A DNA stretch of 26,876 bases from the NCBI GenBank assembly GCA_036170245.1, contig JAVHOV010000041.1, forward strand, positions 1-26,876, written 5' to 3'. The notes beneath the pieces are model-generated. The model saw only the letters and a list, made by a program, of their open reading frames with translations, ran no database searches and was not told the DNA's origin. Position 1 is the stretch's first letter; each line of letters opens with the position of its first letter. This document shows, in pieces, positions 1,583 through 24,939 of the stretch. This stretch comes from an archaeon (GTDB taxonomy: Archaea > Iainarchaeota > Iainarchaeia > Iainarchaeales > JAAZKV01). Both the position numbers and the translations under genes were made by a program.

Positions 1583-1686
1583 GCAACAATTAGACAAGTT
1601 GTTCTTTTTTAACTTTCCTTTTAATCCAAAAGAATTTAAACCACTAAACCGCTTATATTCTATAGTAAAATTAAGGTGGTAAAAAA

Positions 1687-1851: not shown

Positions 1852-1882
1852 ATTGAAAATGAATTATAGAAGGGACTAATAT

Positions 1883-2791: not shown

Positions 2792-2809
2792 TAATTAATT
2801 TTGAAAATT

Positions 2810-3766: not shown

Positions 3767-3866
3767 AATTAAAATAAACGCACCCATCCTTAAAAAAACT
3801 ACCCCTTTAAGAAAAACCATTATATTTAAATCAGTTTGAGCTTCAATTATAGTCATAGGTGGTTTA

Positions 3867-5285: not shown

Positions 5286-5362
5286 AACTATTTTTGAAAG
5301 TGTGGGGCCAAAAAAGCCTCATGCTCAATTATTTTAAACCAAATCTAACCCTATTTTAGTAC

Positions 5363-6373: not shown

Positions 6374-6389
6374 TTAATTGGTGAACAAA

Positions 6390-7166: not shown

Positions 7167-7232
7167 TAAACCATTACTTGGACAAACCAACATCATTTAA
7201 AATCATCCAACCTATTACTGATTGGTGGTTAG

Positions 7233-8186: not shown

Positions 8187-8205
8187 AGAAATAACTACCT
8201 AATAA

Positions 8206-9315
8206 TTATTCGCAAATCTCTTCAACATCAAGTAGTGCACAAGTGCAATTAGTCTTTAGCATTGAAGAAATGCTCGGCTTTGTTTTCCCATGATCGGAAG
8301 AAATGAACTCTTTAACATAAGTTCCATGGGAAGTTCTTAAAGTTAAAACTAATTCTTTATCAGAAACTTTAACAGCATTAAGAAGAGTAACTTTCTTTTG
8401 GCGCTCTAATTTTGCTCTTCTTTTTTCAACTCTGCTTGGAGTATACTGGGCAACATCAAGTTCTATATTGAGTTTTAAATCATTCAAGTCAAATTTATTT
8501 GAGCATACAACAAATGCAGAATAAATCTTATCATGCATTGTATCCTTTACTTTTGAAACATTTCCCAATTCACAAGGAGCAAGAGAATTAACTGAAAGCT
8601 TCCCGCTATTTTCTAAATTTATTTCATTTTCAACCTGTTTTAAATTCACACTTCTCTTTTTTGGCATTACTAGTTCCGCTACAAAAGGCCTTCCCCTACC
8701 AAGCATTAAAACATCCAAATCTTCTCTTCCAGCTCCATGCATAATCAATAATTTTGATTTAAAATATTTCAAAAAAGTTTTTGAAATTAACTGCTCTACA
8801 CTTTCATCACTAAAGTGACCAGTATTATTACAGTACCAGCAACCCGCCCCTTTACATTTATTGCAGAAATATTCAGTTTGGGCAATTTCCCTTGAGTGCT
8901 TACAATAATTTCCGACAATATACACAGGGCGAATTCTAATCAAAACTAATTTCTTTGAAAAATCAATTAAAAATTCAGCATCAGGATTTGAATTAAACTC
9001 AGCTTTTTTACCTAATTCAGTTTCAATTTTATTTATTAACACAGTTTGAACACCAAACTTTAAGTGACTCTTTTCTGCATCACTCATTTGAACTGGCCAA
9101 GAAACTCCTAATTTAAAAGTTGAGAACTCGATTTCACCCAAAACCTCTTTCACTTTATTAAAAAGAATATCAACTAATTCTGTTTCAAAGAAACCATCAA
9201 AATCAAAACTTGTTGCAAAGTGAAACTCTGCACTCTTTACTTTATCCCTGAATTGAAGTTCATGAAGGAGAGTTTGGTATTTTTCCAAGGACTCTGTTAA
9301 AGTTAATATACTCAT
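8206..9315 (-). CDS. pus10: tRNA pseudouridine(54/55) synthase Pus10
   Basis: GNYCKHSREIAQT, CxxCxGxGCxxC, SVEQLI, catalytic HGAGREDLDV, GRPFVAE, QYTPSRV and GTYVKEFI. Confidence 0.93.
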   Translation of the reverse strand: MSILTLTESLEKYQTLLHELQFRDKVKSAEFHFATSFDFDGFFETELVDILFNKVKEVLGEIEFSTFKLGVSWPVQMSDAEKSHLKFGVQTVLINKIETELGKKAEFNSNPDAEFLIDFSKKLVLIRIRPVYIVGNYCKHSREIAQTEYFCNKCKGAGCWYCNNTGHFSDESVEQLISKTFLKYFKSKLLIMHGAGREDLDVLMLGRGRPFVAELVMPKKRSVNLKQVENEINLENSGKLSVNSLAPCELGNVSKVKDTMHDKIYSAFVVCSNKFDLNDLKLNIELDVAQYTPSRVEKRRAKLERQKKVTLLNAVKVSDKELVLTLRTSHGTYVKEFISSDHGKTKPSISSMLKTNCTCALLDVEEICE

Positions 9316-9360
9316 AAAAAAATACCTTAAAGAAGAACATAAAAAAGTTGGTAAATATTA

Positions 9361-9401
9361 AAAAAATAAAAATAAGGTCCTTTTATTCAAAAAGAACCTT
9401 A
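9361..9401 (-). terminator. hairpin + T-tract terminator of the 124-aa membrane protein gene
   Basis: On the minus strand TAAGGTTCTTTT-TGAAT-AAAAGGACCTTA forms a 12-bp stem with one G:U, followed by TTTTTATTTTTTT. It starts 10 nt after the stop. Confidence 0.65.
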
Positions 9402-9410
9402 CAAAACCAT

Positions 9411-9785
9411 TTAGTTTTTCTTATCCATTCCAAAATTCCAAATTTGCAAAAGTCCAACCATTAATGCAGCTGGAGCTGTCAAAGCAACTAAGTTTTGGAA
9501 AACTGCTGTTACTATAGTAGCTATTACTGGAACCAAAGCAACTATTTGCTGCACTGTGATTGATCCTATTAAAGTAACTGCTATTATAGAAATTAGGAAT
9601 TCATTTCTATTCTTCTCGTGAATATTGAACAACCCAACAACTAACCCAAGGATGATCAAGACTAAAGTTATTAGTCCAGCTGCACCTTGAACAATTGCAG
9701 GAGCAAACCAAGCAACTAAGCCCAGAACCACACAAAGAACTAATCCAATTAGAAAAGCTAATCCTCCTACTTTTTTAGCAACCAA
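9411..9785 (-). CDS. small integral membrane protein, about 4 TM helices, unknown function
   Basis: Four hydrophobic segments including GLVVGLFNI and APAA. Strong AGGAGGTG RBS before the TTG start. Confidence 0.85.
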   Translation of the reverse strand: MVAKKVGGLAFLIGLVLCVVLGLVAWFAPAIVQGAAGLITLVLIILGLVVGLFNIHEKNRNEFLISIIAVTLIGSITVQQIVALVPVIATIVTAVFQNLVALTAPAALMVGLLQIWNFGMDKKN

Positions 9786-9860
9786 AAATATACACCTCCT
9801 TTGAAAGAATAACTAGTTACTTAAATAAAATACTTTTCTTAACCAAAAAGTAATTCAAAA

Positions 9861-10796
9861 TCAGTAGTGAAAAGATTCAGTTTGATGAGCCAAAACAGCT
9901 TGTTCTATTTTTACTTTTTCAAGTTCAGTCAAACTCGATTCATCATCAAAACAATAAGCATTCATTAAACCCCTTAAGAAAAGAACTCTCTTCAAGGCCT
10001 GCATCTTTTTATTTACAGGATAAGATTTTTTTATTTCATTAATTCTAGAATCATTCACCAAATACTTTCTCATATCCATTTCACCCATAGAATGGGCAAG
10101 TTCCAAAAAATAACTTGGAAAAATTAAAGCAGAGTTACAAGCAATTCCGCAAAACCCCTGCCTTAAACAATAAAATGCCATATCCTTACTTGCTTCAAAT
10201 AATTTTGTTACTTGATAAAACTTTGATAATTCATTAATATAATCAACATCTTTTGAATATTCAATAATTCCAGTAAATCTCTCCCAAGTAACTATTTTTT
10301 CAAGCCAAGGAATTGGAATAACTGCCCTTGATAACCTTACATCATCATACAAAAGAATGTTTGCACTTGTATGTCTAAAAAGCATGTCAAAGAAATCAAC
10401 AAAACTTATTTCATCCTCAAGAACTGAACTTGGAAGTGAAACTACACAGTAATTAGTGAACTTTTCTGCTTCATTTACTCTTTCGATTATTTCATCAATG
10501 TTTTTTCCAAAGCATCCCGCTAAGAGAAATCCTTTTCCATTAACTTCCTTAAACACAGTCTCCATTATGGCAACTCGATCATCAAAAGAAAGAAATTCCT
10601 GCTCTGAATAAGGCCCAAATAAAAAAAAGCTCTTCACCCCTTTATTCAATAAACGCGCAGTAAGAGTTTTTAGCGAAAGAAAATCAATTGATTTATCTTC
10701 ATTAAGCGGAGTAAGCAGGGGCACAATTAGTCCGGAAAGATTTGATGGATGCAGAGAAATAATTTCTCGCTTACCAAAAAAACCAATCCTTCTCAT
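9861..10796 (-). CDS. DapA/NanA (DHDPS-family) TIM-barrel protein with a degenerate active site
   Basis: GLIVPLLTPLNEDKSID and LLAG place it in the family. GTTGE is GPYSE, PPYY is LPSS and GIKDS is GIIEYS. Confidence 0.85.
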   Translation of the reverse strand: MRRIGFFGKREIISLHPSNLSGLIVPLLTPLNEDKSIDFLSLKTLTARLLNKGVKSFFLFGPYSEQEFLSFDDRVAIMETVFKEVNGKGFLLAGCFGKNIDEIIERVNEAEKFTNYCVVSLPSSVLEDEISFVDFFDMLFRHTSANILLYDDVRLSRAVIPIPWLEKIVTWERFTGIIEYSKDVDYINELSKFYQVTKLFEASKDMAFYCLRQGFCGIACNSALIFPSYFLELAHSMGEMDMRKYLVNDSRINEIKKSYPVNKKMQALKRVLFLRGLMNAYCFDDESSLTELEKVKIEQAVLAHQTESFHY

Positions 10797-10806
10797 AACC
10801 TAACCT

Positions 10807-11487
10807 CTAATTGTTATTCATTTTTTTCTTCAAAATACTCTGTCTTATTGAATCCTTAACTGTGTCCCCAACAAGAACAGTTTTCATTACTTCAAAAACA
10901 TACTTGTCAAGAGAAGCTATATTTACAACCGGAAAATCAGTCAAAAGCTGCTTTACAGAATCAAAATCAAAATTGAAATATGCAAGTCCGTTTAATCTGT
11001 CAATTTTATTTCCTCTATCAGTTAAATTTCCTTCAAACAGAGCAAAATCTATTTTTGAGAATCTTGTAGTGTAATAACCATCAACCCAAACATCATTACA
11101 CAAAAGCAAAGCATCTTTTTCATTCAAATCTTTTTCTTTCAAAACTCTCTGAATTAAAACCTGCTTAAAAAATGAATCATTGAACATAGGGTCCTTTGCA
11201 AGATTTTCCCTATGCAGTTTTTTATCTTCTTCTGCTTTACTTTCAATATATAATTCATCAACAAAAACAAAATGCTTCTCATCTACAAACTTATGAAATT
11301 CCTTCTCCATCATTTTTTGTTTTGCTACAGTTTCATGATGTCCTGAAACTAAATATAATTCAATTTTATTTTCTTTGCAAAAATCATGCAAATTTTTCAT
11401 TAATTCTCTTACCTTAGAATCAATGGCAGTATAATTCTTGTAATTAGTCAAAAGACCCTCAAGCTCAATAAAACATATGTTTTTCAT
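10807..11487 (-). CDS. HAD-superfamily-like protein with motif I ExE
   Basis: MKNICFIELEGLLT (family hhhDxDGTL), LYLVSGH (motif II), a motif III-like Lys and LLCNDVWVDG (motif IV-like). Confidence 0.7.
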   Translation of the reverse strand: MKNICFIELEGLLTNYKNYTAIDSKVRELMKNLHDFCKENKIELYLVSGHHETVAKQKMMEKEFHKFVDEKHFVFVDELYIESKAEEDKKLHRENLAKDPMFNDSFFKQVLIQRVLKEKDLNEKDALLLCNDVWVDGYYTTRFSKIDFALFEGNLTDRGNKIDRLNGLAYFNFDFDSVKQLLTDFPVVNIASLDKYVFEVMKTVLVGDTVKDSIRQSILKKKMNNN

Positions 11488-11542
11488 AAAAGAAACAAGA
11501 AAAACAAAGTTTTTATACCCTACTAAAGTAAGCTATATGCAT

Positions 11543-11707
11543 ATGAGCAACTCTTTGGGATTATTTTTGATAGGAATGGGAATGGGAGTCGCAATGACCC
11601 AATTCATTTTCCCTCAACTTGGAGAACCAATAAGAGGATTCTTCTGGATTAGCTGGTTTATTTTAATACTTGCAGGAATATTCTTTATAATAAAAGCAGG
11701 AAACTAA
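11543..11707 (+). CDS. 54-aa two-TM membrane protein
   Basis: MSNSLGLFLIGMGMGVAMTQFIF...GFFWISWFILILAGIFFII. A TTTTTATA box at 11510-11517 suggests a leaderless start at ATG 11543 (or 11537). Confidence 0.7.
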   Translation: MSNSLGLFLIGMGMGVAMTQFIFPQLGEPIRGFFWISWFILILAGIFFIIKAGN

Positions 11708-11831
11708 ACATAATTTGTTAATTTTCTTTTTTTTCACCTAATTTTTCTTTTTTATTATAAATAAATTTTATTTTGGTTTTTTAGGCACAATAACCGAATA
11801 CTTATAAACTGATAATTCCTTTAAAATGTAA

Positions 11832-12998
11832 ATGATTCGAAGACTAATTATTGGAAAAGAAGGTTCAGAAAAAGAAGTAGTTCTAGTTGGAACTGCACAC
11901 ATCTCAAAAGAATCAATGGAACTTGTAAAAAAAACCATTGAAGAAGAACAGCCTAATGTTATTGGAGTTGAACTTGACAGAGACAGACTTGAACAATTAT
12001 TATCAGGAAAAAAATGGCAGGAAACTAATTTAGTTGAAATAATTCGAACTGGAAAAACATACTTATTTTTGTTGAACATATTCCTATCAAACATGCAAAG
12101 ACAAATTGGAAACCAAGTAGGAATACAGCCAGGGGCAGAAATGCTTACTGCACTAAAACTTGCTCAAGAAAAACAAGTTCCAATACAATTACTTGACCGA
12201 GACGTAAGAATTACACTAAAAAAAGCTTTCAGCGAAATGGGTTTAATGGAAAAATTAAAACTTGGAACTTCATTTGTTGGAGGATTCTTTGGAGCTGGAG
12301 AAAAAATTACTGTTGAAAAAATTGAGGAACTAAAGAAAGAAGATTTGATAAACAATTTAATGAAAGAAATGGGAAAACAATTTCCTTCAATAAAAAGGGT
12401 CCTAGTTGATGAGAGAGATTTATACATTTCTGAAATGATTAAACACAGCCCAGGAAAGAAGATTGTCGCAGTTGTCGGAGCAGGACACATCGAGGGAATA
12501 GTTGCACAATTGAGTTCTGACAAGAAAGTCAATTTAGAAGAACTGAATAAAATTCCTCAAACCAAGAATTGGTTAAAATATATTACAATTGCATTACCAA
12601 TTTTATTTATTGGAATCTTAGGGTACGCATTACTGTCAAAAGGATTTGAAGCTGCAATAGGGGTTTTAATTTACTGGATACTAATAACAGGAATATTTTC
12701 AGCACTTGGGGCACTTGCAGCAAGGGCACACCCATTATCAATAATTGCAGCTTTTGTTTCTGCACCAATAACAACACTTCACCCGGCTCTTGCCGCAGGA
12801 TGGATTAGCGGACTAGTTGAAGCAAGATTTAATTCACCAAGAGTAATGGATTTTGAGAACTTGCCAGAAGTATCTTCAATAGGACAATTCTACAATAACA
12901 AAGTAACTCACATCTTAATCGTTGCAGCACTAACAAATTTAGGCGCAATGATTGGAGTAATAATTGCATTCCCTGCAATCATTACACTCTTAGCATAA
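11832..12998 (+). CDS. TraB/PrgY/GumN-family protein with C-terminal membrane domain
   Basis: LVGTAHIS, VELDRDR, PGAEM, LLDRDV, LVDERD, VVGAGH, then TM helices with SAPITTLHPALAAGW. Confidence 0.92.
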   Translation: MIRRLIIGKEGSEKEVVLVGTAHISKESMELVKKTIEEEQPNVIGVELDRDRLEQLLSGKKWQETNLVEIIRTGKTYLFLLNIFLSNMQRQIGNQVGIQPGAEMLTALKLAQEKQVPIQLLDRDVRITLKKAFSEMGLMEKLKLGTSFVGGFFGAGEKITVEKIEELKKEDLINNLMKEMGKQFPSIKRVLVDERDLYISEMIKHSPGKKIVAVVGAGHIEGIVAQLSSDKKVNLEELNKIPQTKNWLKYITIALPILFIGILGYALLSKGFEAAIGVLIYWILITGIFSALGALAARAHPLSIIAAFVSAPITTLHPALAAGWISGLVEARFNSPRVMDFENLPEVSSIGQFYNNKVTHILIVAALTNLGAMIGVIIAFPAIITLLA

Positions 12999-13004
12999 AA
13001 AAGC

Positions 13005-13038
13005 AAAGTTGAAATGAATAAATTAATTCAACAACTTT
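13005..13038. terminator. imperfect hairpin between the convergent TraB-family and tRNA-binding genes
   Basis: AAAGTTG..TGAAT-aaatta-ATTCA..CAACTTT fills the gap between the two stop codons. Confidence 0.45.
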
Positions 13039-13039
13039 A

Positions 13040-13375
13040 TTACTCAAATCTAGTTCCTTGTAAAACACTTTCATCTACAAAATTTATTCTGTATTTTCCT
13101 TCAGTGTTCTTTGCCGCAAGAATCATTCCCTGACTTTCAAATCCAGCCAAGACTCTTGGAGCCAAGTTAAAAACAAAAATGGATTTCTTTCCTTTAATTT
13201 CTTCTTTTGTGTAATAAAATTTAATTCCAGCTAAAATTGTTCTTTTTCCAAGTTCAGTTCCAAAATCAACAGTCATTTTGTATAATTTGTCCTTTCCAAC
13301 AATATCCTCTACATCTTCAATCAAACCTGCTCTTAATTCTATTTTAGCCCAATCTTCAAAAGGAATAACCATCAT
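13040..13375 (-). CDS. stand-alone tRNA-binding OB-fold protein (Trbp111/CsaA/MetRS C-terminal-like)
   Basis: FEDWAKIELRAG, DKLY, RTILAGI, NLAPR and ESQGMILAA. GGTGA RBS. Confidence 0.92.
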   Translation of the reverse strand: MMVIPFEDWAKIELRAGLIEDVEDIVGKDKLYKMTVDFGTELGKRTILAGIKFYYTKEEIKGKKSIFVFNLAPRVLAGFESQGMILAAKNTEGKYRINFVDESVLQGTRFE

Positions 13376-13438
13376 GCTTCACCAAAATAATAATTGCAAT
13401 AAAACATTAAAATAGCTTATGCACCTATATTTTACTTG

Positions 13439-14317
13439 ATGTTTTCAAACAAAAACGCTTTACCTGAAAAGAAATTTTTATTTCTTGATATTGATGGAGT
13501 AATCACTCCGACTCACGAGTTCATTCCTGATATTCCCCCAAAGATTTCAAAGGAATCAATAAAAATTCTCAAAGAAGCAGTGAAACATAATTTCAAACTA
13601 GTATTCATTACTGCACGTTCATCAGTTGAAATAAGAACAAAAAACGGAGTAGAAGAGGTACTTAAAAAAAATAATCTTTTATGCGATTCACTGATATATG
13701 CTTCAAGCGGAATAGAACATGTTACACACGCACACGAATTTCATACAAAAAATGGAAAACCCCTTTTCAAGAACGGAAATGCAATAATCACAATTAAACC
13801 CGTAATAAAGCGAGAAACTTTTGCCCACTTGGATCAATTAATGCTTTACAAAATGTTTTTGGGAAATGATATTAGAAATGCACTCAAGTATGAAGGATTC
13901 AAGCTTCGTTCAGCAAGAGAAAAAAGATTACTTACTGATGCAAGATTCTTTTTTGAACTTCAAATCAATAAACCTTCTGAGCGAAAAAGAATGACTCTTG
14001 AAGCTAGAAAAATTGTAAAACATTTACACAACGCATTTTTACGAACTCACAAATATGGCAGTCCAGTAGAACTTGATGTAATTGATATAGGCGCAGGAAT
14101 TGCAATTGAACCAAAAGAAATGGGGAAACACTTAGGAGTACTAAGAGCATTGAAGCATGAAGAAGTAATGCCAAATGACAAAATAATTGCATATGCTTTT
14201 GGAGACTCAAACAGCGACAGATTAATGAAAATAAGAAAAGATATTGTATTCTTCAACGTAAGAAATAACAAAGGATTTTTGAAAATCTTGCGAGAAATAT
14301 TAACAGAAGAAAATTAA
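13439..14317 (+). CDS. HAD-superfamily (IIB-like) phosphatase
   Basis: Intact FLFLDIDGVIT, FITARS, GKHLG and YAFGDSNSD motifs. Confidence 0.82.
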   Translation: MFSNKNALPEKKFLFLDIDGVITPTHEFIPDIPPKISKESIKILKEAVKHNFKLVFITARSSVEIRTKNGVEEVLKKNNLLCDSLIYASSGIEHVTHAHEFHTKNGKPLFKNGNAIITIKPVIKRETFAHLDQLMLYKMFLGNDIRNALKYEGFKLRSAREKRLLTDARFFFELQINKPSERKRMTLEARKIVKHLHNAFLRTHKYGSPVELDVIDIGAGIAIEPKEMGKHLGVLRALKHEEVMPNDKIIAYAFGDSNSDRLMKIRKDIVFFNVRNNKGFLKILREILTEEN

Positions 14318-14349
14318 CTTTTAAAAGGAAAAATTATTTTTTAGGCAAA

Positions 14350-14982
14350 TTATCTTTCCATTTTATTTTTAATATAAGGCAATAAAGTTCCTTTTTTTTC
14401 TGCTTCTTTAATCAGCCCTTTAGCATAAATCATTCTCTGAACAGAACCAATTGCTGAAATTAATGCAATTAATAACAAAAAGTATTCTAAGTAATTGAAC
14501 CCTAGAACTGCAAGCAATAATCCAACTAATAATAGTGCCAATTTATCAGCGTGTTCTCCAATTGCAGGCCAATCCCTATTATCAGTAATAATAATCAAAC
14601 CAACTCTTGGTTTTGCATAACTTGATACTGCTGAAAATCCAAGTGCAAGCACTGCAGGGATTGAATACATAGGGATAAATGCGAATGAACCAAGCATTGC
14701 AAAATCAACCAACTTATCTATCATTGTTTCAAAATAATTACCCCAATTACTTCTTTTGTTCAAAGCTCTTGCAGTAGTACCATCAATCAAATCCATTGTT
14801 GGAGCTAAAATGAAAAAAACTAAAGCCAAAAGCCAATTTTGTTGAGTAACAAAATAAGCCCCAATTATTGCAAGAATTAATCCAAAAACAGAAATTAAGT
14901 TAGGATCAATTCTTAGTTTTATAAAAGGCCAAGCCAGAATATTTTGCAAAAAACCAATTTTTCCTCTTAACTTTGAAATCAT
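14350..14982 (-). CDS. CDP-alcohol phosphatidyltransferase family protein
   Basis: PNLIS and DLIDGTTARALNKRSNWGNYFETMIDKLVD (CDP-OH motif, third Asp replaced by Glu), SYAKPR, multiple TM helices. Confidence 0.9.
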   Translation of the reverse strand: MISKLRGKIGFLQNILAWPFIKLRIDPNLISVFGLILAIIGAYFVTQQNWLLALVFFILAPTMDLIDGTTARALNKRSNWGNYFETMIDKLVDFAMLGSFAFIPMYSIPAVLALGFSAVSSYAKPRVGLIIITDNRDWPAIGEHADKLALLLVGLLLAVLGFNYLEYFLLLIALISAIGSVQRMIYAKGLIKEAEKKGTLLPYIKNKMER

Positions 14983-15019
14983 ACTAATTCACAAATTAAG
15001 TAATTTTGTATAAGAATAT

Positions 15020-15078
15020 TGCCTCAGAGTTGGATTAACTAATCACTAAATCATTAGGGATTTACTTCATCATGGGCA
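15020..15078 (-). ncRNA. C/D-box 2'-O-methylation guide sRNA (double guide)
   Basis: Minus strand reads TGCC-C-ATGATGA (box C)-AGTAAATCCCTA (12 nt)-ATGA (D')-TTTA-GTGATTA (C')-GTTAATCCAACT (12 nt)-CTGA (box D)-GGCA. Terminal 4-bp stem, two 12-nt guides and a compensatory A:U change in D'/C'. Confidence 0.88.
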
Positions 15079-15099
15079 TTTATATTGTGCAACTTGGGC

Positions 15100-15118
15100 T
15101 TTAAAAATGTGGCTTTTT
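15100..15118 (-). promoter_or_regulatory. BRE/TATA promoter for the C/D sRNA, possibly also the downstream phosphatidyltransferase gene
   Basis: Minus-strand AAAAAGCCACA-TTTTTAAA with the TATA box 22-29 nt upstream of the sRNA 5' end. Confidence 0.6.
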
Positions 15119-15286
15119 AGGTAAAAATTAGAGTTTGTCAAAAAATTCCCAAAAAAAGAAGATTTAAATACTCTAATAATAAGGCATTATGTATCAAATA
15201 TAAAGAATAGTACCAAATCTTTTGAGATTGGTTATAACCTATTTTCTAAATAATTTGAAGGAAAGAAAATAAAAAAGTGATTAAAT

Positions 15287-16771
15287 ATGCAAAAAAGATA
15301 TGTAAATACAATAATAGAAGCTACTCAAGGCAGCACATTTGCCGGAGATGTAAAGATATTAAGAAAGGCTAAACCGGGCCCAGTAGTTTTCCAAGTAAGT
15401 GACGGTACAGCAACTATTGATGCTGTAACTAAAGAATCAGATTTCAATACTGATGATACAGTTTTTTTGGAAGGATATGTTACTGAAAGAGCAGGAAAAA
15501 AACAAATTGAGATAGAACACATAAAGAAATCAACTGCTGATTTTTCAAAAATAATTGATGAAAAAAGCAAACCAAAAGAAAAACCATTTGCAGTTAATTC
15601 TGAAAAATATAACACAATGAAGGAAAGATTTTACCTAATTGCAGCAAGACTAAGAAAAGCTGTTATTGAAGGGCAACCTGTTTTAATCAGGCACCACTCT
15701 GATGCTGATGGAATTTCTGCAGGAATTGCAATAGAAAAAGCATTGAATGATTTCATGATAGAGTTTGGAACAAACCCCCAATACAATTTATACAGAAGTC
15801 CAAGTAAAGCTCCATTTTATGAAACAACTGATATGCTAAAAGACTTGTCACTTGCAAAAAGACTAGTGAATGATTTCAGCCAAAAGAAACCATTAATTGT
15901 TATAATTGACAATGGTTCGACTCATGAAGACTACTTTGCATTGAAAATGATGCATGCACTTGGATTTGAAATTGTTGTGATAGATCACCATAATCCTGGT
16001 GAAATAAAAAACGGCAAAACAGAAGTGTGTCAATTCTTATCACTTCATCTAAATCCGTACATTTTCGGATTTGACAGCAAAATATGTGCAGCAATGTTAT
16101 CTTACGAAGTTGCAAGACTTGTAAATGATAAATTTGAAAACAAATTAATTCCAGCACTTGCAGGAATCAGCGACCGTTGCGAAGGAACTGAAATTGAACA
16201 GTACATAAAAAACAGTGGCAAAAGTATCGAGAACTTGCAGAAAATTGGAGTAGCAATTGACTTTGCTTCATACAATTTGAGATTTGATGCAGGAGAAGGA
16301 GTTTATGAAGAATTCTTTACAAATGAAGAAGTTGTTTCATTAATATTTGAAGAAACTTTAAAAGGAATGGCAGTACAACTGCAAAGCACAATGCCTTATG
16401 TAAAGACACAGGAGATAAACAATGTAATTTTATCTCACATTGATCTTGAGAAATACACTGTAAGATTCAAGTACCCTCCGGCAGGAAAAGTAATTGGAAT
16501 GGTTCATGATGAAATATCTGAAGGAAAAGAAAACCACGCAGTAATAACTTTAGGACTACTTTCCGACATGATTATTCTAAGAGCAACTAAACCAGTTCTG
16601 CCAATCGCTAAAATAATTAGCCATCTTCAAGCAAAAATGCCTGAAGCCAATATTGAAGGCGGGGGACATGAATGCGCAGGAACAATAAAGTTTGTAAGTG
16701 CACACTCTGAAAGAATACTTGAAGAAATAAAAGAACAAATCAGAACTCTAAAATTTGAACAGGAAGAATAA
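15287..16771 (+). CDS. archaeal RecJ-like DHH exonuclease with N-terminal OB fold
   Basis: GPVVFQVSDG OB fold; IRHHSDADG, RSPSKAPFYE, IIDNGS, VIDHH, YPPAGK and GGGHECAGTIKF. Confidence 0.9.
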   Translation: MQKRYVNTIIEATQGSTFAGDVKILRKAKPGPVVFQVSDGTATIDAVTKESDFNTDDTVFLEGYVTERAGKKQIEIEHIKKSTADFSKIIDEKSKPKEKPFAVNSEKYNTMKERFYLIAARLRKAVIEGQPVLIRHHSDADGISAGIAIEKALNDFMIEFGTNPQYNLYRSPSKAPFYETTDMLKDLSLAKRLVNDFSQKKPLIVIIDNGSTHEDYFALKMMHALGFEIVVIDHHNPGEIKNGKTEVCQFLSLHLNPYIFGFDSKICAAMLSYEVARLVNDKFENKLIPALAGISDRCEGTEIEQYIKNSGKSIENLQKIGVAIDFASYNLRFDAGEGVYEEFFTNEEVVSLIFEETLKGMAVQLQSTMPYVKTQEINNVILSHIDLEKYTVRFKYPPAGKVIGMVHDEISEGKENHAVITLGLLSDMIILRATKPVLPIAKIISHLQAKMPEANIEGGGHECAGTIKFVSAHSERILEEIKEQIRTLKFEQEE

Positions 16772-16790
16772 ACAAAAATAAAAATTAATT

Positions 16791-16833
16791 GGGAAGAAAC
16801 TAAAATTAGTTTCTTTTCAAAAATCTTTTTTTT
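16791..16833 (+). terminator. hairpin terminator between the convergent RecJ-like and PHP genes
   Basis: AAGAAACTA-aaat-TAGTTTCTT (16794-16815, extendable by G:U pairs), followed by T-rich sequence. Confidence 0.55.
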
Positions 16834-16838
16834 AAAAA

Positions 16839-17534
16839 TTATCTTTCCTTCATCCAATGTTTCCTTGCCATTTGAGTCTGGAAGTGATGCCAAAGTTTAG
16901 CTTTATTATTTGCAACAACATTGGTTCTGCACTTTTTTATTTCTTTTCTGAATTCTTCTTCATTCACTGCATCAATTTCGGTTAAGCCATTTCCAATTTC
17001 TTCAGGAGTATGAGCATCACTCACTCCAAGAGCAGCAATTTTCTTATTCACCATTTCACTATTAAAGAATTTTTCTGATTTTCTGTTCAGCCCCTGATAA
17101 TAAGCTCTAGCATTATAAATTTCCATTGCATCAAAATGCTTCCATTCCTTAGGAAAGGATTTGAAATTCTTTCTTGGCCAGTCAAAAGGATGCGGGCATG
17201 AAAGAAGAGCACCCTGACTCTTTATATCATCTAAAATTTCTTCAAAAGTAGAAGGTACTATAGGGTCAGTTAAGAAATATCCAATTACTTCCCCAACGCA
17301 TTTCTTTTGTTCCTTATTATTCAAAACTTTTACTTCTTCACCAGGGACTAAAAAAACACTTTCTTTTTTTGCTAATTGCTTGATGTTATTATCTCCTTTG
17401 TATGCAGCCATATTGTTATGATCTGTTAGAGCAAAACCGATTCCCTGCTTCTTGCACACCTTAACTATTGTAGAAGGCTTGGTTAAGGCATCAACGCTGA
17501 ATCTTGAATGCAAATGCAAATCAAATAACATCAT
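16839..17534 (-). CDS. PHP-domain metal-dependent phosphoesterase
   Basis: DLHLHSRFSVD, ALTDHN, PGEEV, CPHPF, EIYNAR and GVSDAH. Confidence 0.9.
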   Translation of the reverse strand: MMLFDLHLHSRFSVDALTKPSTIVKVCKKQGIGFALTDHNNMAAYKGDNNIKQLAKKESVFLVPGEEVKVLNNKEQKKCVGEVIGYFLTDPIVPSTFEEILDDIKSQGALLSCPHPFDWPRKNFKSFPKEWKHFDAMEIYNARAYYQGLNRKSEKFFNSEMVNKKIAALGVSDAHTPEEIGNGLTEIDAVNEEEFRKEIKKCRTNVVANNKAKLWHHFQTQMARKHWMKER

Positions 17535-17591
17535 TTATCACTTACAAAAAAGGTAAACTAAGTATTTAAAACCCCTTTTGAATCAAAAATA

Positions 17592-18818
17592 ATGCAGATG
17601 AATATAGAACAAATCAGAGAAGATTTTCCATTATTACAAAGAAAAATTAAGGGCAAAAAAATTGTTTACCTAGATAATGCTGCAACTTCTTTAAAACCAA
17701 AACAAGTTATTAATGCTGAAAAGAATTATTATGAAAATGTTTCTGCAAATGTCCACCGCGGGCTGCACATTTTAAGTGAAGAAGCTTCAAGAGAACATGA
17801 AGCAGCACATGAAACTGTTGCAAAATTTGTTGGAGCAAAAAAAGAAGAAACTATTTTTGTCAGAAATGCTACTGAAGGATTGAATCTTGTAATGTATTCC
17901 TTATGGAACTCAAATTATTTCAAAAAGGGAGATAAAATTCTTGTTTCAAAAATGGAACACCACTCAAACATTGTTCCTTGGCAATACTTAGAAAAAAAAA
18001 TTGGAGTGAAACTTGAATATGTTGAACTCAATAAAGATTATACTCTTGATATGAATGATTTTGAATCAAAAGTAAAAGGAGCAAAATTAGTTTCAATTAC
18101 TGCAGCAAGCAATACCGTTGCAACCCTCCCTAATGTCAGAGAAATTACAAAAAGAGCTCACAAAGAAGGAGCCTTAGTTTGCGTTGACGGAGCACAGCTT
18201 GTACCCCACCATGAGGTTAATTTTTTTCAAATGGATTTTGACTTTTTGGCTTTCTCAGGACACAAAATGCTTGCCCCAACAGGAACTGGAGCACTAATCG
18301 GAAAAAAGAAAATATTAGAAGCAAATGAACCATTTATGTTCGGAGGAGACATGATTCACTCTGTTGAACTTCATAAATCAATTTGGAACACTTTACCAAA
18401 TAAGTTTGAAGCAGGAACTCCAAACATTGCAGGATCCTATGGAATAAAAGCCGCTTGTGAATACTTGAAGAAAATAGGAATGAATAATATTGCAAGGCAC
18501 GAAGAAACACTTACAAAACTTGCATTAGAAGAAATGAGCAAAATTGATTCAATAAATATTTACGGTCCCCTTGATGCAAAGAAACAGGGAGGAATAATTC
18601 TATTTGAATCCACTTTACTTTCTGCACACGAACTCGCAATGGCATTAAGCGAAGCAGAGAATATTTGTATTAGAAGTGGAATGCACTGTGCTGAACCATT
18701 AGTATCAAGTTTAAACAAAGAAGGACTTGCAAGAGCAAGCTTCTACCTATACAACACAGAAGAAGAGATACTATTCTTTACTAATACATTAAAAGAAACG
18801 CTAAAAGTGTTTGGTTAA
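17592..18818 (+). CDS. sufS: SufS-type (group II) cysteine desulfurase
   Basis: YLDNAAT, ANVHRG, EHHSN, VDGAQ, FSGHKM (PLP Lys), FEAGTP, RSGMHCA (catalytic Cys) and RASFYLYN. Confidence 0.95.
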   Translation: MQMNIEQIREDFPLLQRKIKGKKIVYLDNAATSLKPKQVINAEKNYYENVSANVHRGLHILSEEASREHEAAHETVAKFVGAKKEETIFVRNATEGLNLVMYSLWNSNYFKKGDKILVSKMEHHSNIVPWQYLEKKIGVKLEYVELNKDYTLDMNDFESKVKGAKLVSITAASNTVATLPNVREITKRAHKEGALVCVDGAQLVPHHEVNFFQMDFDFLAFSGHKMLAPTGTGALIGKKKILEANEPFMFGGDMIHSVELHKSIWNTLPNKFEAGTPNIAGSYGIKAACEYLKKIGMNNIARHEETLTKLALEEMSKIDSINIYGPLDAKKQGGIILFESTLLSAHELAMALSEAENICIRSGMHCAEPLVSSLNKEGLARASFYLYNTEEEILFFTNTLKETLKVFG

Positions 18819-18884: not shown

Positions 18885-19328
18885 CTATTTTTCTTCAAAA
18901 AAGTAATCACTTAACTCTTGGCCTTTAATTATTGAAGCTACATCAATGGCCAAATACTCTCTTGGGCTAAGTTCAAAAAATAATTTCTTTTGTTTCTTTG
19001 CTTCTTTGGTAAATGAAACCTTTGCACCAAAAACTGAGATTGGAGGAAAATAATCTTTTTCAAATCCGGTTAGCTTGAGAACCTCACCCTCATCAACTTC
19101 TTGTAAATTCACATCAAATAAATCCTTGGCAGTTTCAATAGTTACTTTTTCATTTGCAATAAAAACCACTACAAAGAAGTCCATTTTATCATTTACAAAA
19201 GCACTTGCTTTGGCACAAGCAAAAATATTCAATTTTGCAACCGAAAGAGCTTTAGTTACAGAAACATCACTAGAAAATTTTATTATCTGTGCATTAAGAG
19301 CGTTTGAATCTATAAAATCCTGAAGCAT
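18885..19328 (-). CDS. YbaK/EbsC/ProX-like aminoacyl-tRNA editing domain, divergent
   Basis: Length and layout match the family, with CAKAS (conserved Lys) and EVLKLTGFEKDYFPPI (family TGxxxGGVxP). The Gly-rich loops are lost. Confidence 0.65.
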   Translation of the reverse strand: MLQDFIDSNALNAQIIKFSSDVSVTKALSVAKLNIFACAKASAFVNDKMDFFVVVFIANEKVTIETAKDLFDVNLQEVDEGEVLKLTGFEKDYFPPISVFGAKVSFTKEAKKQKKLFFELSPREYLAIDVASIIKGQELSDYFFEEK

Positions 19329-19474: not shown

Positions 19475-21844
19475 TTATTTTCTAAACCCATTTTTCTTTT
19501 TAGCAACAGGCCCAAATAATAGCACAACTATTATCACAAATATTGCAAACAGCAATAGTCCAAGCAATGGAGCTGTGTATGCACCAAACCAACCACTTAT
19601 AGAAAATGATTGATCTTTACCTGTAAAAGAAATCAATTGAGTCTTTGTTATTGACCCGTTTGAAGTTTCTATTACTACTGAAACATTCTTGTCAGTTGGC
19701 AGACTTCCAGTGAACCACGCAACAATACTTGCAGTCATGCTTTCAGTTGGCTTTAGTAATCTATTTGAATCAAACTTTACTACCGCATTCAAATCATTAA
19801 TGAAAATATCACTTACTGTAAAGTCTGCATTTGAATCATTTGAAATTACAAAGTCAAACTTTACTTCAGTAACTTTCAATCCATTCAAATCAGTTACCTT
19901 AGAGTTAGTATCACTATTAAATCCTTCAGGAACTTTACAATTTCCGCCGAACACATGAACTAAAAAGTTGACATCTCGGTAAGTGTTCTTATCACTTAAC
20001 ATTGCAACTTGAACATTAAAGTCTCCATTAGTTCCTGCAGGAGGAGTTAAACTCAAATAAACATTCTTATCTTTAGTTGCAAGGATGAAAACTGGTGTTT
20101 CACTTACAGAAATCCACTTAGGGGCAACAACATTCAAATCAATTGTCTGTGCAAAGAAACCACTGTTTCCAATATTTAATGGAACAATTTTACTTTCGCA
20201 ACAATTAGCATCAACTGATTTGGCTACTTTGAAATTCAAATCATAACATTCTTTTGGAGTTAATGTAATAACAGGAACTGTCTTTGAAACATTAACTTGG
20301 TCAGATTCAATTAAAATTGTCTGTTGGTTTGCATAAGCATTAGGAACGTCACCGTACAAATTAACTTGCTTTGATTCGCCCGCATTAAGATCAAATTCGC
20401 CGTTCATTACAAAAATCCAATTCGAATCAATACTTACTTTGAATTTTTGTGCAGATGTACCATCATTTGTTACAAAGAAATCATGTCTCATATCTTCATT
20501 ATCGCAAATTAAAATTCTAGAAATATCTGTTCCAGCATCAAAACAATTTTGGAAATTATAATTATATTCCAAAGTTTTTTCAATGAAAGGAGTAATAACT
20601 TTTACACTTACTTTTGAATCAGAAGGACTTGCTGAAGTCAATTTGAAAACTTCTTTTGTATTTGATGCAGCAGCAACAACTATTGGTTTAGTTTCTACTA
20701 AAACCCCATTTAGGTAAATACTTGCATTAAAATCCATTCTTTCTGAACCAGTGTTAGTGAATTTAATTACTGAATCCGCTGACAAAAGACAAGTGTTTTC
20801 GTCAAAAGAAGCTCTTTCTATATTCAAGTCATAGCAATTGTTCAATACTAATTCAATCGGGAAGAAGTAACTCTTATTGTATGCGCTTGAAGTTATTTTA
20901 ACTATTAAATTTGAATCACTTACACTTCTTTTCTTTACAATCAATGAAACAACTGAAGAAGAATTAAAATCTAACTTTGCTTTGCTCTGTTCAAAATATG
21001 CAATATCTTTATTTAAATTTGCATAATTTTCATCAAGCAATTCAATAGTTAAATTATCATTTTTATCAGACACATTTGTCAGTTTGAATGAAACATTTTT
21101 GTCAAATTCTTCGCAAGAATTTAATTTGAACTTATTTGACTCTGACAAATTATCTATAATAAAAGGATTGAATTTAGTTATTGTTTTAGTCAATGCTATT
21201 TTGCTTGAAGCATTTGTTCTTGTATTAAACAACCCTAATTCAAATGAATAAGTATTTGCATCAGTATTGCATAAAGAAGTTACTCTCATTAATGCAGTAT
21301 ATGAAGAATAGGGATTTATCACAAATTTAGTTTGTGGATAAGTTACCCAAGAATCATTTAATCCATTTTGAACTAAAACAAATTCATCAACAAATTTGCT
21401 AGTATTTCTTATTACAATATTATAATCACTAGCTTCGCATGGCTTTGAAGTTCTGTTTAATGGGCTTACTGAATAATTAAAAGTGTGGGCTTGGTTAACA
21501 TTCAAATTATATTTAAGTAAATTTGATTCAACCCCAAAAACCAAAATATTGAAATCATAACTTCCGCTGTTTGCATAACATTCAGGCGTAACAAATGCAT
21601 AAAAATCAATGCAAGAATTTGAATCCATATTAATTGAACTAGGAGCAATTGCAATCCAACTACTTTGAGGCCCTTGAACAGAAATATTATACACTCCGCC
21701 AAGATCTGCGCAAATAGTATACTTTTGTTTAAAAGAGTCACATTGGTTAACACTAGCGTAAGTTGGCCCAGTTACTGACAAAGCACTAACTGTGCTTACT
21801 AATAACACAAAAACTAATATTATTGAAATTATTCTATTGTCCAT
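19475..21844 (-). CDS. 789-aa membrane-anchored surface protein with tandem Ig-like (NEW3/CARDB-like) domains
   Basis: Signal peptide MDNRIISIILVFVLLVSTVSA; repeated beta-sandwich motifs (IRNTS, LTNVS, FTNTG, VTNDG, IGNSG); C-terminal TM and KKKNGFRK tail. Confidence 0.85.
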   Translation of the reverse strand: MDNRIISIILVFVLLVSTVSALSVTGPTYASVNQCDSFKQKYTICADLGGVYNISVQGPQSSWIAIAPSSINMDSNSCIDFYAFVTPECYANSGSYDFNILVFGVESNLLKYNLNVNQAHTFNYSVSPLNRTSKPCEASDYNIVIRNTSKFVDEFVLVQNGLNDSWVTYPQTKFVINPYSSYTALMRVTSLCNTDANTYSFELGLFNTRTNASSKIALTKTITKFNPFIIDNLSESNKFKLNSCEEFDKNVSFKLTNVSDKNDNLTIELLDENYANLNKDIAYFEQSKAKLDFNSSSVVSLIVKKRSVSDSNLIVKITSSAYNKSYFFPIELVLNNCYDLNIERASFDENTCLLSADSVIKFTNTGSERMDFNASIYLNGVLVETKPIVVAAASNTKEVFKLTSASPSDSKVSVKVITPFIEKTLEYNYNFQNCFDAGTDISRILICDNEDMRHDFFVTNDGTSAQKFKVSIDSNWIFVMNGEFDLNAGESKQVNLYGDVPNAYANQQTILIESDQVNVSKTVPVITLTPKECYDLNFKVAKSVDANCCESKIVPLNIGNSGFFAQTIDLNVVAPKWISVSETPVFILATKDKNVYLSLTPPAGTNGDFNVQVAMLSDKNTYRDVNFLVHVFGGNCKVPEGFNSDTNSKVTDLNGLKVTEVKFDFVISNDSNADFTVSDIFINDLNAVVKFDSNRLLKPTESMTASIVAWFTGSLPTDKNVSVVIETSNGSITKTQLISFTGKDQSFSISGWFGAYTAPLLGLLLFAIFVIIVVLLFGPVAKKKNGFRK

Positions 21845-21861
21845 ACCCAAAAACCCCTTTT

Positions 21862-24800
21862 TTACTCCATCCAAACTTCTCTTTGTTTTGGCTTAGTAAT
21901 TATAGCTAACCCTAAAGTAATTAACCATACCAAAACAATTAAAATAATTGCTAGAATTACAAATCCCATTATTCCGCTAAAATCCAATATATTATTTCCC
22001 CCAAAAGAGAAGAAAGCAGAAAACATTCCTGCAAACACCCCATTATTCTTTTCAATATGCAGAGTAAATCCTTTCTTATTCACTAATTGAGAACTTGATA
22101 CTACAAATACTGGAGAATAATCCCCGTTCACATCAAGAGCAGTAATTTTGCCAGACACATTAGTTAATTCGCCTGCAGCAAGAGAAGGAATTACAATATC
22201 ATCCATAGAAACTCCGTCAGGTAAAGATTCAATTGTTATTTTTATATTATTCAAATCTTTCTCAGAATTATTTCTTACTACTAAATCAAATGATGCGCTA
22301 GAATTGCCTTTTATGTCAATTTCACTAGTTGCACTCAATATTTGAAGATCATCAAAAGTTGTTTTCTCTTTTACATTAAAGTAAATTGTTGAAGTCAATT
22401 GAGTTGAACCGTTTAATTTCAACTGGATTTTTTGGTTATCCCCAACTATTGAACTAGGATTAGTTGAAACTGAAACAAAAATTGTTTTACTTGTTCCTTT
22501 CCTTACAGTAAATCTGTCTTCAGAGAAACTTACATTCACTCCAGTAGGAACTTCAAATGCAGACAAAGAATATGTCTCATCAAGATCTCCGTTATTTACT
22601 ATTTCCACGTCAAATATGCTTGAACCGCACCAAATTATATCCTTAGCCTGAGTTTTAACATAGAAACTTGAACTGCTCTCAGGCAAAACATTTAGGCAAA
22701 TATCTTTAGTTTGAGTAAATGAATCCCATTCACTGCCATCACTAGCATTAATTGTAACATAATTCTTTCCTGCACTAATATCAGTTGGAACTATTAAAGA
22801 ATATAAAATTGTTTTACCTTCCCCTTCTTTTAGAGAAACTGTACTATAAGATAATTCGCTGCTTGCTTGCGCAATATTCAAAAAGAAATCTTTTCTTTGA
22901 GTAGAACAATTGCTTCCGGAATTACTTTCTCTTCTTACTGAAAATTGGCTTTCTAAAGTTTGTCCTCTTTTTACATCAAAGCAAACATTTGGTGCAGAAA
23001 GAGTGAATGTTCTTTTTACAATGTTTGAACAATCCACTACATCAAAGTAAACTTGTTTTTCAATGTGATAAGAATCAGCATCCCCTGAAATTGAAACACT
23101 TTCAGTTGTGCCTGCTTGAAGTGCAATTGCATTAATTGTTAATTGAACAGTTTTTTGTTCCCCGCCATTAAGAGTAATATACTCGTTATCAAAGTGAGGA
23201 AGAACCATTTCATTATCTGCACTTAAATAAATTTTCTTGCTTGATGAAGTAGTGTTTTTTACTAAAACTGAAACATCTTTTCTTTCCCCAGCACAAACTG
23301 TTCCATCAAACTCTTCTATTTTGAATCCGTCAAAATTACTGCAAGTTCCAACTTCGAACTTGAAATCCATGCTTAAATTTGAATCATTGTCAAATACACT
23401 GACATTATATTTTCTTTCTTCTGCCCCGCAGGAATTTACGCTCAAAGTAATATTTGTTTCTTCTTTTGAATTAAGGCACAACTTGTTTTGTGAAAGTGAA
23501 GTGTTCAAATAATTGTAAGGAGATGAACTTGAATCAAAATCAAAGCATTTCTTTGCATTAGTATCATTCTTCAAATAAATTGGCAAAGAATAAGTTGAGC
23601 AAGTTTCAAGGCATACACCGTATGTTTCTGCAGAAAAGTGAATTACTCCATTATTTGAATCAAAGCAATTACTTGAAACAGTAAAACTAGTGCTAGAACT
23701 TTTTCCTTTTGAATCAGTTGCACTCAAATCAAGAACAACACTTAATTTATCATTTGATTCCAAAGTACATGAAATGAAATTACTGTCAACTAAAGAACAA
23801 CTTAAACCATTAACTGAAGTTTGGTTAAAATGGAAAGTCAAATTATTTTTGTCTTCAGTATCAGTAACGTAATTTCTCAAATCAACGAACTTTGTTTTTG
23901 ATTCGTTAATACAAACACTTGAAATATTATTCCACACAGGAGTTTTATTTTTCACATTCAACATAAAAGTTGTTTCTGAATATAATCCGAAAATATCAGT
24001 TGCTCTTACTTGTACAATATTATTTGCATCACTGCATGAAGATATTGCACAAAAAAGGAAATGATTTTCAGTCAAATAACAATTTGCAAAATAAGGATTT
24101 GACTGTGAAATTATATTAAAATCCAGTAACTGTTTGTCTTCATCAGAGGAATAATCATACAAATCAATTAATTTGTTTACATTTTGAACACAATCAACTT
24201 CCTGATTCGGAATGTAAATACTTGGAGCTGAATTTGTTACATTAATGTCAAATTGTTTTGAAGCGTGCTTTCCGCAGGAATCCTCTACATTAACGCTTAT
24301 TGTAGTAATGCCCAAATCGTTTCCGTTGCAGCTCAAATATCTATTTGAAGCAACAGTGCAAACAGCTGATTCTGAATTTATATCAGTGATGTATAAATTA
24401 GTAATTTCAAGTTCGCTTTGGAAATCATCAGAATCTTTGACATAATCCCACAAATCAATTCTCAAATTCTGTTTGTAAGTTATTGTTTTGTTTGGAAGCT
24501 CTAAAATGCAAGGAGCTAAATCTGTTGTGCAAGGATCAACTGGCTTATCTTTTGTACAATTAGCAGTTGTTCCAGAGTGAAGTCCAACACAATTCCATTT
24601 ATACAAAGTAGAAGAATCTGCTACATCAGCAAAAGTTCCTTTAGAACAAGTGTTAACATCAGTACCGCAAACACCATTTACTGGCAAAGGACAACCGCAA
24701 GTCGAGCAAGTAGGTGCAGGATCACATGCTGAGCAAGTGCTGCAAGTTGAGCAAGTGGAAGGAGTTGAATTGCAAAAAGAACAAGTTGAAGTTGTTGTAG

Positions 24801-24939
24801 AAGTATTAGTATGATAAATATTATCAATGCAATCAGAGCAAGAACTATCATTAGTTGCACATGCAGCATTTGCAAATACACTCATTGATAAAACAATTAA
24901 CAGCATTCCAGCTAATAAACAAAAATGATTAAATTTCAT
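21862..24939 (-). CDS. 1025-aa membrane-anchored surface protein: Cys-rich tip, three cadherin-like repeats, Ig-like stalk
   Basis: GGAGGG RBS before ATG 24939; signal peptide MKFNHFCLLAGMLLIVLSMSVFANA; CxxC runs; repeats IDLWDY/IDLYDY/VDLRNY about 95 aa apart; C-terminal TM and basic tail. Confidence 0.85.
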   Translation of the reverse strand: MKFNHFCLLAGMLLIVLSMSVFANAACATNDSSCSDCIDNIYHTNTSTTTSTCSFCNSTPSTCSTCSTCSACDPAPTCSTCGCPLPVNGVCGTDVNTCSKGTFADVADSSTLYKWNCVGLHSGTTANCTKDKPVDPCTTDLAPCILELPNKTITYKQNLRIDLWDYVKDSDDFQSELEITNLYITDINSESAVCTVASNRYLSCNGNDLGITTISVNVEDSCGKHASKQFDINVTNSAPSIYIPNQEVDCVQNVNKLIDLYDYSSDEDKQLLDFNIISQSNPYFANCYLTENHFLFCAISSCSDANNIVQVRATDIFGLYSETTFMLNVKNKTPVWNNISSVCINESKTKFVDLRNYVTDTEDKNNLTFHFNQTSVNGLSCSLVDSNFISCTLESNDKLSVVLDLSATDSKGKSSSTSFTVSSNCFDSNNGVIHFSAETYGVCLETCSTYSLPIYLKNDTNAKKCFDFDSSSSPYNYLNTSLSQNKLCLNSKEETNITLSVNSCGAEERKYNVSVFDNDSNLSMDFKFEVGTCSNFDGFKIEEFDGTVCAGERKDVSVLVKNTTSSSKKIYLSADNEMVLPHFDNEYITLNGGEQKTVQLTINAIALQAGTTESVSISGDADSYHIEKQVYFDVVDCSNIVKRTFTLSAPNVCFDVKRGQTLESQFSVRRESNSGSNCSTQRKDFFLNIAQASSELSYSTVSLKEGEGKTILYSLIVPTDISAGKNYVTINASDGSEWDSFTQTKDICLNVLPESSSSFYVKTQAKDIIWCGSSIFDVEIVNNGDLDETYSLSAFEVPTGVNVSFSEDRFTVRKGTSKTIFVSVSTNPSSIVGDNQKIQLKLNGSTQLTSTIYFNVKEKTTFDDLQILSATSEIDIKGNSSASFDLVVRNNSEKDLNNIKITIESLPDGVSMDDIVIPSLAAGELTNVSGKITALDVNGDYSPVFVVSSSQLVNKKGFTLHIEKNNGVFAGMFSAFFSFGGNNILDFSGIMGFVILAIILIVLVWLITLGLAIITKPKQREVWME

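Follow-up and report, generated by a model that had tools for sequence, protein, structure and literature searches.

A D-x-N signal selected in exported proteins of an Iainarchaeota archaeon and its predicted reading by AglB

Exported proteins of an Iainarchaeota (DPANN) archaeon contain two to five times more D-x-N (Asp two residues before Asn) than chance, while its cytoplasmic proteins do not. We conclude firmly that D-x-N is a selected, export-specific signal that is read as sequence. On balance, we favor the prediction that AglB, the oligosaccharyltransferase of this genome, reads the motif through the Asp at -2, without Ser/Thr at +2, and glycosylates the Asn. The stretch of DNA analyzed (the window) is 26,876 nt long and belongs to an assembly that is 86% complete.

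Results

Protein A carries a large excess of D-x-N. Surface protein A (Table 1) consists of a signal peptide, a chain of Ig-like beta-sandwich domains, and a C-terminal anchor (model pLDDT 82.5, pTM 0.43); if translated from the ATG at 21844, it is 789 aa long. Its own Pfam match is weak, with NPCBM_assoc/FixG_C-type Ig families found on homologues, and a fold search returned generic multi-Ig chains only (TM-score 0.33 or less). Within residues 32 to 762 there are 49 Asp, 76 Asn, and 27 D-x-N (the first at 21617-21625, the last at 19685-19693), so that the hand count in the initial annotation was exact. Whole-protein shuffles gave 5.0 +/- 2.0 D-x-N (maximum 13 in 5000), the same as the roughly 5 that had been estimated from composition. 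The excess also survived shuffles within 10-residue blocks (mean 6.2, maximum 14 in 5000) and shuffles that kept i,i+2 strand parity (mean 8.1, maximum 18 in 5000).

Related patterns in protein A were at chance level (DN 4, D-x-x-N 2, N-x-D 7, and E-x-N 3, the last already described as rare), and D-x-D was absent against 3.2 expected. Sequence contexts were non-repetitive, in agreement with the earlier remark that the motif is not bound to one repeat register. Of the codon pattern GAY-NNN-AAY, the reading frame holds 27 copies, another sense frame 2, and the antisense strand 1; the pattern is therefore one of protein. That only 4 of the 27 sites are also N-x-S/T was counted correctly, but 4 is the chance share, and N-x-S/T still numbers 17 against 13.4 expected. 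The neighboring protein B, which adjoins protein A in relatives too, had been credited with 12 D-x-N and many N-x-S/T; the values are 12 versus 6.3 (p 0.018) and 26 versus 18.9, respectively. The 199-aa protein of the same gene run has 1 D-x-N and is uninformative.

Table 1. Positions of the features discussed (window coordinates unless a contig is named)
Feature	Position	Strand	Basis or remark
Surface protein A, 799 aa from TTG	19475..21874	-	
N-terminal hydrophobic signal segment of A, residues 1-31	21782..21874	-	hydropathy; predicted helix 13-26
Ectodomain of A, residues 32-762	19589..21781	-	holds all 27 D-x-N
C-terminal membrane anchor of A, then short basic tail	19514..19588	-	hydropathy; predicted helix 769-787
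Surface protein B, 1025 aa from ATG (1053 from TTG 25023)	21862..24939	-	Ig-like domains (FixG_C)
Small exported C-anchored protein, 199 aa	24942..25541	-	same gene run as A and B
STT3/AglB oligosaccharyltransferase, 714 aa	G000:C38:4955-7099		PF02516, E 3.7e-20, over the cutoff

The excess is genome-wide and restricted to exported proteins. The 791 ORFs of the genome were called crudely and sorted into classes by regular expression and hydropathy rather than by a trained predictor. With this sorting, 79 exported-like proteins held 410 D-x-N against 198 +/- 13 (200 shuffles, maximum 237), and 102 proteins with an N-terminal hydrophobic segment and one to three such segments in total held 415 against 196. 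D-x-N was the most over-represented residue pair at distances 1 to 4 in the exported set (z 15). There was no excess in the 559 proteins lacking transmembrane (TM) segments (385 versus 372; 419 versus 411 in another count), which extends to the genome the initial impression that D-x-N is sparse in cytoplasmic proteins. Other membrane proteins (n = 130) had 96 versus 65.

The excess was present on every export route: lipobox proteins (36/16.9, 2.1-fold), pilin-like proteins (38/19.3, 2.0-fold), proteins with a signal peptide and C-anchor (135/45.5, 3.0-fold), giant anchored proteins (121/72, 1.7-fold), and proteins with a single h-region (93/45.5, 2.1-fold). Confinement to one protein, which would have undone the original proposal, is thereby excluded. 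Because all export classes are affected, a factor acting after export on any substrate is indicated, and we infer that the reader of D-x-N works at that stage whatever the substrate. Searches of 5 relatives gave no match to two other proteins of this genome that are rich in D-x-N. An 812-aa multi-membrane protein (G000:C26:1279-3717) has 9 D-x-N against 3.2 and is possibly a further membrane glycosyltransferase. The genome also encodes a 2203-aa Ig-like protein, anchored N-terminally (G000:C36:5611-12222; L075), whose multi-copy family is present in 40 of the 41 genomes searched; the protein is a candidate envelope or S-layer component.

D-x-N is general in the host genus. Comparison genomes all came from within the phylum, and per relative 1 to 11 exported proteins were sampled, these being homologues of two proteins of the window's genome and their neighbors and hence not independent. 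The D-x-N ratio (observed to expected) was 1.6 to 4.2 in 21 of 22 genomes of the host genus (1.3 in the remaining one, G003) and 2.1 in G023. Of 16 genomes in other families, 13 did not exceed 1.09, the exceptions being G033 (1.86), G037 (1.65), and G035 (one protein). With more sampling, G022 (117 versus 82) and G024 (52 versus 43) showed excesses carried by single rich proteins (22/4.7, 16/5.2, and 9/1.7), and the excess of G033 likewise lay in single rich proteins (23/5.5 and 18/5.9). G026, whose AglB has WWDYG and D-N-T-N, was flat overall (181 versus 168 in 60 exported proteins) but nonetheless has three D-x-N-rich proteins (13/4.4, 16/5.8, and 12/3.2). Contexts in the rich proteins of other families were non-repeat, apart from a Cys-rich protein of G036, and the no-TM proteins of G022, G024, G026, G033, and G037 had D-x-N at or under chance. 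The signal is thus order-wide in chosen proteins and general in the host genus. In the comparison of exported with cytoplasmic proteins proposed in the initial annotation, the excess was limited to exported proteins in this genome, and an excess in exported proteins recurs across the lineage.

Asp and Asn are gained and lost together. To the 18 orthologues of protein A from clade loci were added 19 whose taxonomy is not known; five rows from outer genomes were left out of the counts. The 37 sequences contain 633 D-x-N sites over 98 alignment columns, and orthologues showing D-x-N are 30 to 71% identical. Among ten close orthologues, Asn was retained in 95% of comparisons in which Asp was kept and in 26% of those in which Asp was lost. 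The coupling odds ratio was 53.5 for these ten and 33.7 for all 37; nine control pair types gave 0.6 to 3.5, with N-x-S/T (S and T pooled) at 3.0 to 3.5. Pairwise counts of this kind overstate independence, a bias that the control pairs share. These results demonstrate that D and N are selected as a two-residue unit.

A few columns have D-x-N nearly fixed (35/37 and 33/37 orthologues). However, full-length orthologues of family f2 have 0 to 2 D-x-N in 7 of 8 cases (G025 has 5), and the G034 orthologue has none; therefore, the fold does not need D-x-N. The predicted structure of protein A places 11 of the 27 sites within loops, 9 within strands, and 7 where strands end. Every one of the 9 strand sites has a hydrophobic residue directly following Asn, which suggests that in this model D and N would face outward.

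The motif excludes proline and is indifferent to Ser/Thr. In 163 pooled clade proteins, D-x-N occurred 1348 times against 525 expected (2.57-fold). All other a-x-N combinations lay between 0.69 and 1.20, with E-x-N at 0.91, so Glu cannot stand in for Asp at -2. Further positions were examined in 58 proteins chosen for D-x-N richness (1073 versus 295), in which about a quarter of sites are chance sites. Pro was found 15 times at -1 and 10 times at +1 of 1069 sites, against 41.9 expected, and was near normal elsewhere (35 at -3, 53 at +2, and 37 at +3). The Pro signal was weaker in the window's genome alone, where 9 D-P-N and 6 D-x-N-P among 410 sites compare with about 13 and about 16 without exclusion. 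Additional Asp was scarce near the motif (20 at -4, 12 at -1, and 26 at +1, versus 64), and at +2 both Asp (32 versus 64) and Asn (59 versus 83) were low. Acid-rich Ca2+ loops are defined by D-x-[DN]-x-[DN]; the further Asp/Asn/Glu ligands of such a loop were lacking at i+4 and nearby.

Ser/Thr followed at +2 in 279 of 1308 clade D-x-N and in 1561 of 7014 other Asn (odds ratio 0.95). The odds ratio ranged from 0.89 to 1.37 across five groups and was significant in none, and N-x-S/T was mildly enriched (about 1.2) in D-x-N-bearing proteins. Two further patterns did not hold up: a use of E-x-N by other families in the place of D-x-N (sites in G027, 10/9.1, and G034, 9/5.7; pooled 473 versus 496), and a trend from D-x-N-x-S/T in outer families to a relaxed D-x-N in the genus (odds ratios 1.35 to 1.37, p about 0.4).

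The only AglB found has altered motifs. A profile search found one STT3-family gene in the window's genome (Table 1). The model of its product (pLDDT 91) had STT3/AglB proteins as best fold matches (Z 31.7, rmsd 5.4, 558 aligned; against AfAglB 3waj, VIA Z 29.3, rmsd 4.1, 531 aligned) and lay nearer to STT3/AglB (Z 25-32) than to PglB (Z 22). D57 (the EL1 Asp) and E378 (the TIXE/SVSE Glu) are invariant in 36 of 36 aligned relatives, as are both Trp of the WWDYG motif. The EL1 Asp aligns with that of STT3A/AfAglB, and the TIXE assignment was made by motif and position.

Inspection of the AglB motifs, as suggested in the initial annotation, showed that WWDYG and DK are altered and that EL5 has a lysine. 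WWDYG reads WWNDGH here, a departure from the usual +2 Ser/Thr pocket. Among 120 homologues, the third residue of WWD is D in 69, N in 25, G in 16, and S in 7 (3 unparsed), and the full WWDYG is present in 14. The column of the DK-type lysine, assigned by alignment within the order, is Ala. In place of the second metal motif in EL2 (D-x-D/E/H), this clade has G-D-N, versus E-E-D/E-D-D in other families; with one metal-ligand acid gone, the activity could be altered or lowered. A Lys lies 11 residues past the TIXE-type Glu in 110 of 120 homologues and is here Lys389, at the end of the EL5 helix. In PglB, R331 binds the -2 acid and lies 12 residues after E319, according to the available parts of PMC7226087 and PMC4894442; Lys389 may be its equivalent, judged solely by spacing. 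A profile of EL5 only found no transferase among solved structures (PDB).

In relatives, aglB has Alg7-like neighbors in 70 of 80 named loci and Alg14-like neighbors in 43. The Alg7-like family was not found in the 86%-complete assembly, in which the locus ends about 0.5 kb past aglB. Three genomes of the genus have a second AglB type, long-branched and lacking the EL5 lysine (L032 in G018, L049 in G003, and L069 in G006); G003 yielded no other full AglB. The AglBs L365-L372 (G129, G163, G054, G048, and G076) are 636 to 670 aa long and matched the profile in two pieces, as if they were without the membrane segments before EL5.

AglB changes track D-x-N load poorly. The EL5 lysine is present also where sampled proteins show no excess (G034, G048, G054, and G163). 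G038 and G076 keep WWD and a DK-type lysine, a near-intact pocket, yet have D-x-N-rich orthologues (7/1.6 and 10/2.0); nine genus members with intact WWD have loads among the highest, and G025 and G030, which lack WWD, have overall ratios of 0.82 and 0.30. None of four candidate load markers sorts the genomes, and all were rejected: WWN by itself, absence of the DK lysine by itself, the lysine in EL5, and a D-N-R-N motif. A quick tree groups the G-D-N type of AglB into one clade (SH-aLRT 99), so that its match to high load counts as only one contrast. G022 and G023 are of this type, and their giant proteins show no excess (0.82 and 1.18). Given this poor tracking, the link to the enzyme is put forward as a prediction.

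Discussion

The initial annotation proposed that an oligosaccharyltransferase or other modifier reads the -2 Asp without the +2 hydroxyl residue. The signal it needs is there, being export-specific, lineage-wide, co-selected, Pro-excluding, and independent of S/T, and the sole AglB found has altered motifs; the part that did not hold up is a clean sorting of AglB changes with load. In the mechanism that we favor, the chain, once exported, would bind to AglB and lie extended, as a strand, along the TIXE-type loop, and hence proline would not be tolerated near D-x-N. Lys389 of EL5 would pair with the -2 Asp in the manner of R331 in PglB and thereby take over from the hydroxyl pocket, and the lipid-linked glycan would then be transferred to the Asn. 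Besides the poor sorting, several observations speak against AglB as the reader: Pro is not depleted at +3, a position disfavored in the AglB frame (PMC8342417, available part), Glu is not enriched, though PglB takes Glu at -2 (PMC4894442, available part), N-x-S/T keeps its mild enrichment, the G-D-N change may affect activity, no Alg7-like gene was found in the assembly, and the Pro signal is weaker in this genome alone. The capacity to read D-x-N looks order-wide, with the host genus having spread the signal over most surface proteins.

It is possible, but rather unlikely, that a second enzyme (another GT-C transferase or a different modifier) reads D-x-N outside the membrane and that AglB keeps N-x-S/T. 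The D-x-N and N-x-S/T signals are statistically independent, AglB features sort poorly with load, and two PMT_2-family membrane glycosyltransferases are encoded in the window's genome, all as such a division of labor would have it. However, the Pro pattern and the -2 Asp match oligosaccharyltransferase recognition, N-x-S/T is weakly selected in D-x-N proteins (coupling 3.0-3.5 versus 34-53), and no conserved membrane enzyme other than the Alg7-like one was found beside aglB in 80 loci.

A structural or physicochemical role, such as turn formation or capping by Asx, binding of Ca2+ or another metal at the surface, or lattice contacts in the beta-rich envelope proteins of this lineage, is improbable. 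Asp and Asn at i and i+2 lie on the same strand face, the carriers are all beta-rich surface proteins, and the few nearly fixed columns are what a structural motif would give. Against this, the sites are spread over loops, strands, and strand ends and over 98 columns, most f2 orthologues have almost none, N-x-D, D-x-D, N-x-N, and E-x-N are not enriched, and parity-keeping shuffles reach at most 18 versus 27. Depletion of extra Asp near the motif is the opposite of what acid-rich Ca2+ loops show. The Ca2+ and structural alternatives named in the initial annotation are thus disfavored: nearby acids are avoided, and the fold dispenses with the sites.

We give little credence to a shifted register, in which Asp is the acceptor, Asn occupies a remodeled +2 pocket, and hundreds of surface sites bear an Asp-linked (ester) glycan. 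Glycosyl esters are labile, which counts against it. Glu is no substitute for Asp, and the +2 pocket and one metal-site acid are changed, as this register would have it. Pro depletion would then fall at +1 and +3 from D, the places barred by the AglB TIXE frame; the available part of PMC8342417 describes Pro as excluded at +1 and less strictly at +3 through the TIXE loop. The PglB register fits the identical Pro pattern, however, since its sequon bars Pro at -1 and +1 (PMC2952790, available part). Moreover, the residues that bind the acceptor amide in known enzymes (PMC7226087, available part) are invariant here, as Asp57 and Glu378, and would repel a carboxylate. Finally, an artefact of DNA or composition, or repetition within the protein, is all but excluded despite an AT-rich genome and Asn-rich proteins, given 27 in-frame occurrences versus 3 in other frames, 559 no-TM proteins without excess, non-repetitive contexts, and recurrence in orthologues at 30 to 71% identity.

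To return to AglB as reader, D-x-N behaves like a sequon of the PglB type, yet the +2 hydroxyl and Glu set it apart. It shares with the Campylobacter PglB sequon D/E-Z-N-X-S/T an Asp two before Asn, disfavored Pro at -1 and +1, location in exported proteins, and a basic EL5 residue at similar spacing from the TIXE Glu (here +11, in PglB +12). It differs in that +2 S/T is not needed (odds ratio about 1; 4/27 in protein A) and that Glu is unused: an acid at -2 is favored here for Asp only (2.57-fold, Glu 0.91-fold), although PglB accepts Glu there (PMC4894442, available part). The host is also an archaeon, and its AglB is closer in fold to STT3/AglB than to PglB. With AglB/STT3 enzymes that use N-X-S/T (A. 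fulgidus AglB-L, 7E9S, 3WAJ) it has in common the family, the fold, the EL1 Asp, and the TIXE-type Glu, together with the W-W of WWDYG and, in relatives of the host, Alg7/Alg14-like neighbors. AglB can modify Asn without +2 S/T, as seen for N-X-N/L/V mutants in H. salinarum and three sites in Hfx. volcanii (PMC2952790 and PMC8241124, available parts). Those sites are rare and follow no -2 rule, whereas here there are hundreds per proteome under selection. The literature searched, mostly outside subscription journals and without supplements, held no account of the D-x-N signal or of Iainarchaeota AglB specificity in the text available, and the available part of PMC11407970 added nothing further on precedents.

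If the prediction is true, D-x-N, being the lineage's main signal under selection, would be a natural, proteome-wide exception to the +2 rule and would show evolutionary rewriting of a sequon. To our knowledge, the +2 hydroxyl is regarded as invariable and central to N-glycosylation throughout the three domains, with scattered exceptions only. The system would allow a direct test of the contributions of the WWD pocket and the -2 contact, and its single-subunit enzyme would possibly be useful in glycoengineering. Most sites in these archaea would escape site predictors and any glycoproteomics that filters by sequon, and a heavy, renewable glycan coat would bear on how such small cells meet hosts and viruses.

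Additional observations

Sampled exported proteins of 13 genomes among G025-G040 were depleted in D-x-N (247 versus 355). N-x-D (343), E-x-N (449 versus 471), and N-x-N were not depleted in the same genomes, and D-P-N was exempt. This could be avoidance of a signal read order-wide, in a sample dominated by orthologous giant proteins. The dipeptide E-N was in excess in G026 (205 versus 163 in exported and 438 versus 326 in no-TM proteins, so that the excess extends beyond exported proteins) and in G033 (80 versus 58). In pooled exported proteins, N-x-C exceeded expectation by a factor of 1.5 (clade) or 1.7 (other families), which may reflect an atypical sequon or a disulfide pattern.

By Pfam, window positions 359-18818 contain ordinary housekeeping genes, with no family assigned to the ORFs at 1883-2791, 9411-9785, 10807-11487, and 13436-14317. 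The families found were two DHH proteins, a PIG-L deacetylase, M18 and M24 peptidases, NucS, PRPP synthetase, Pus10, a DHDPS-like protein, TraB, a CDP-alcohol transferase, PHP, and a class-V aminotransferase. A tRNA-editing domain is encoded at 18885-19328.
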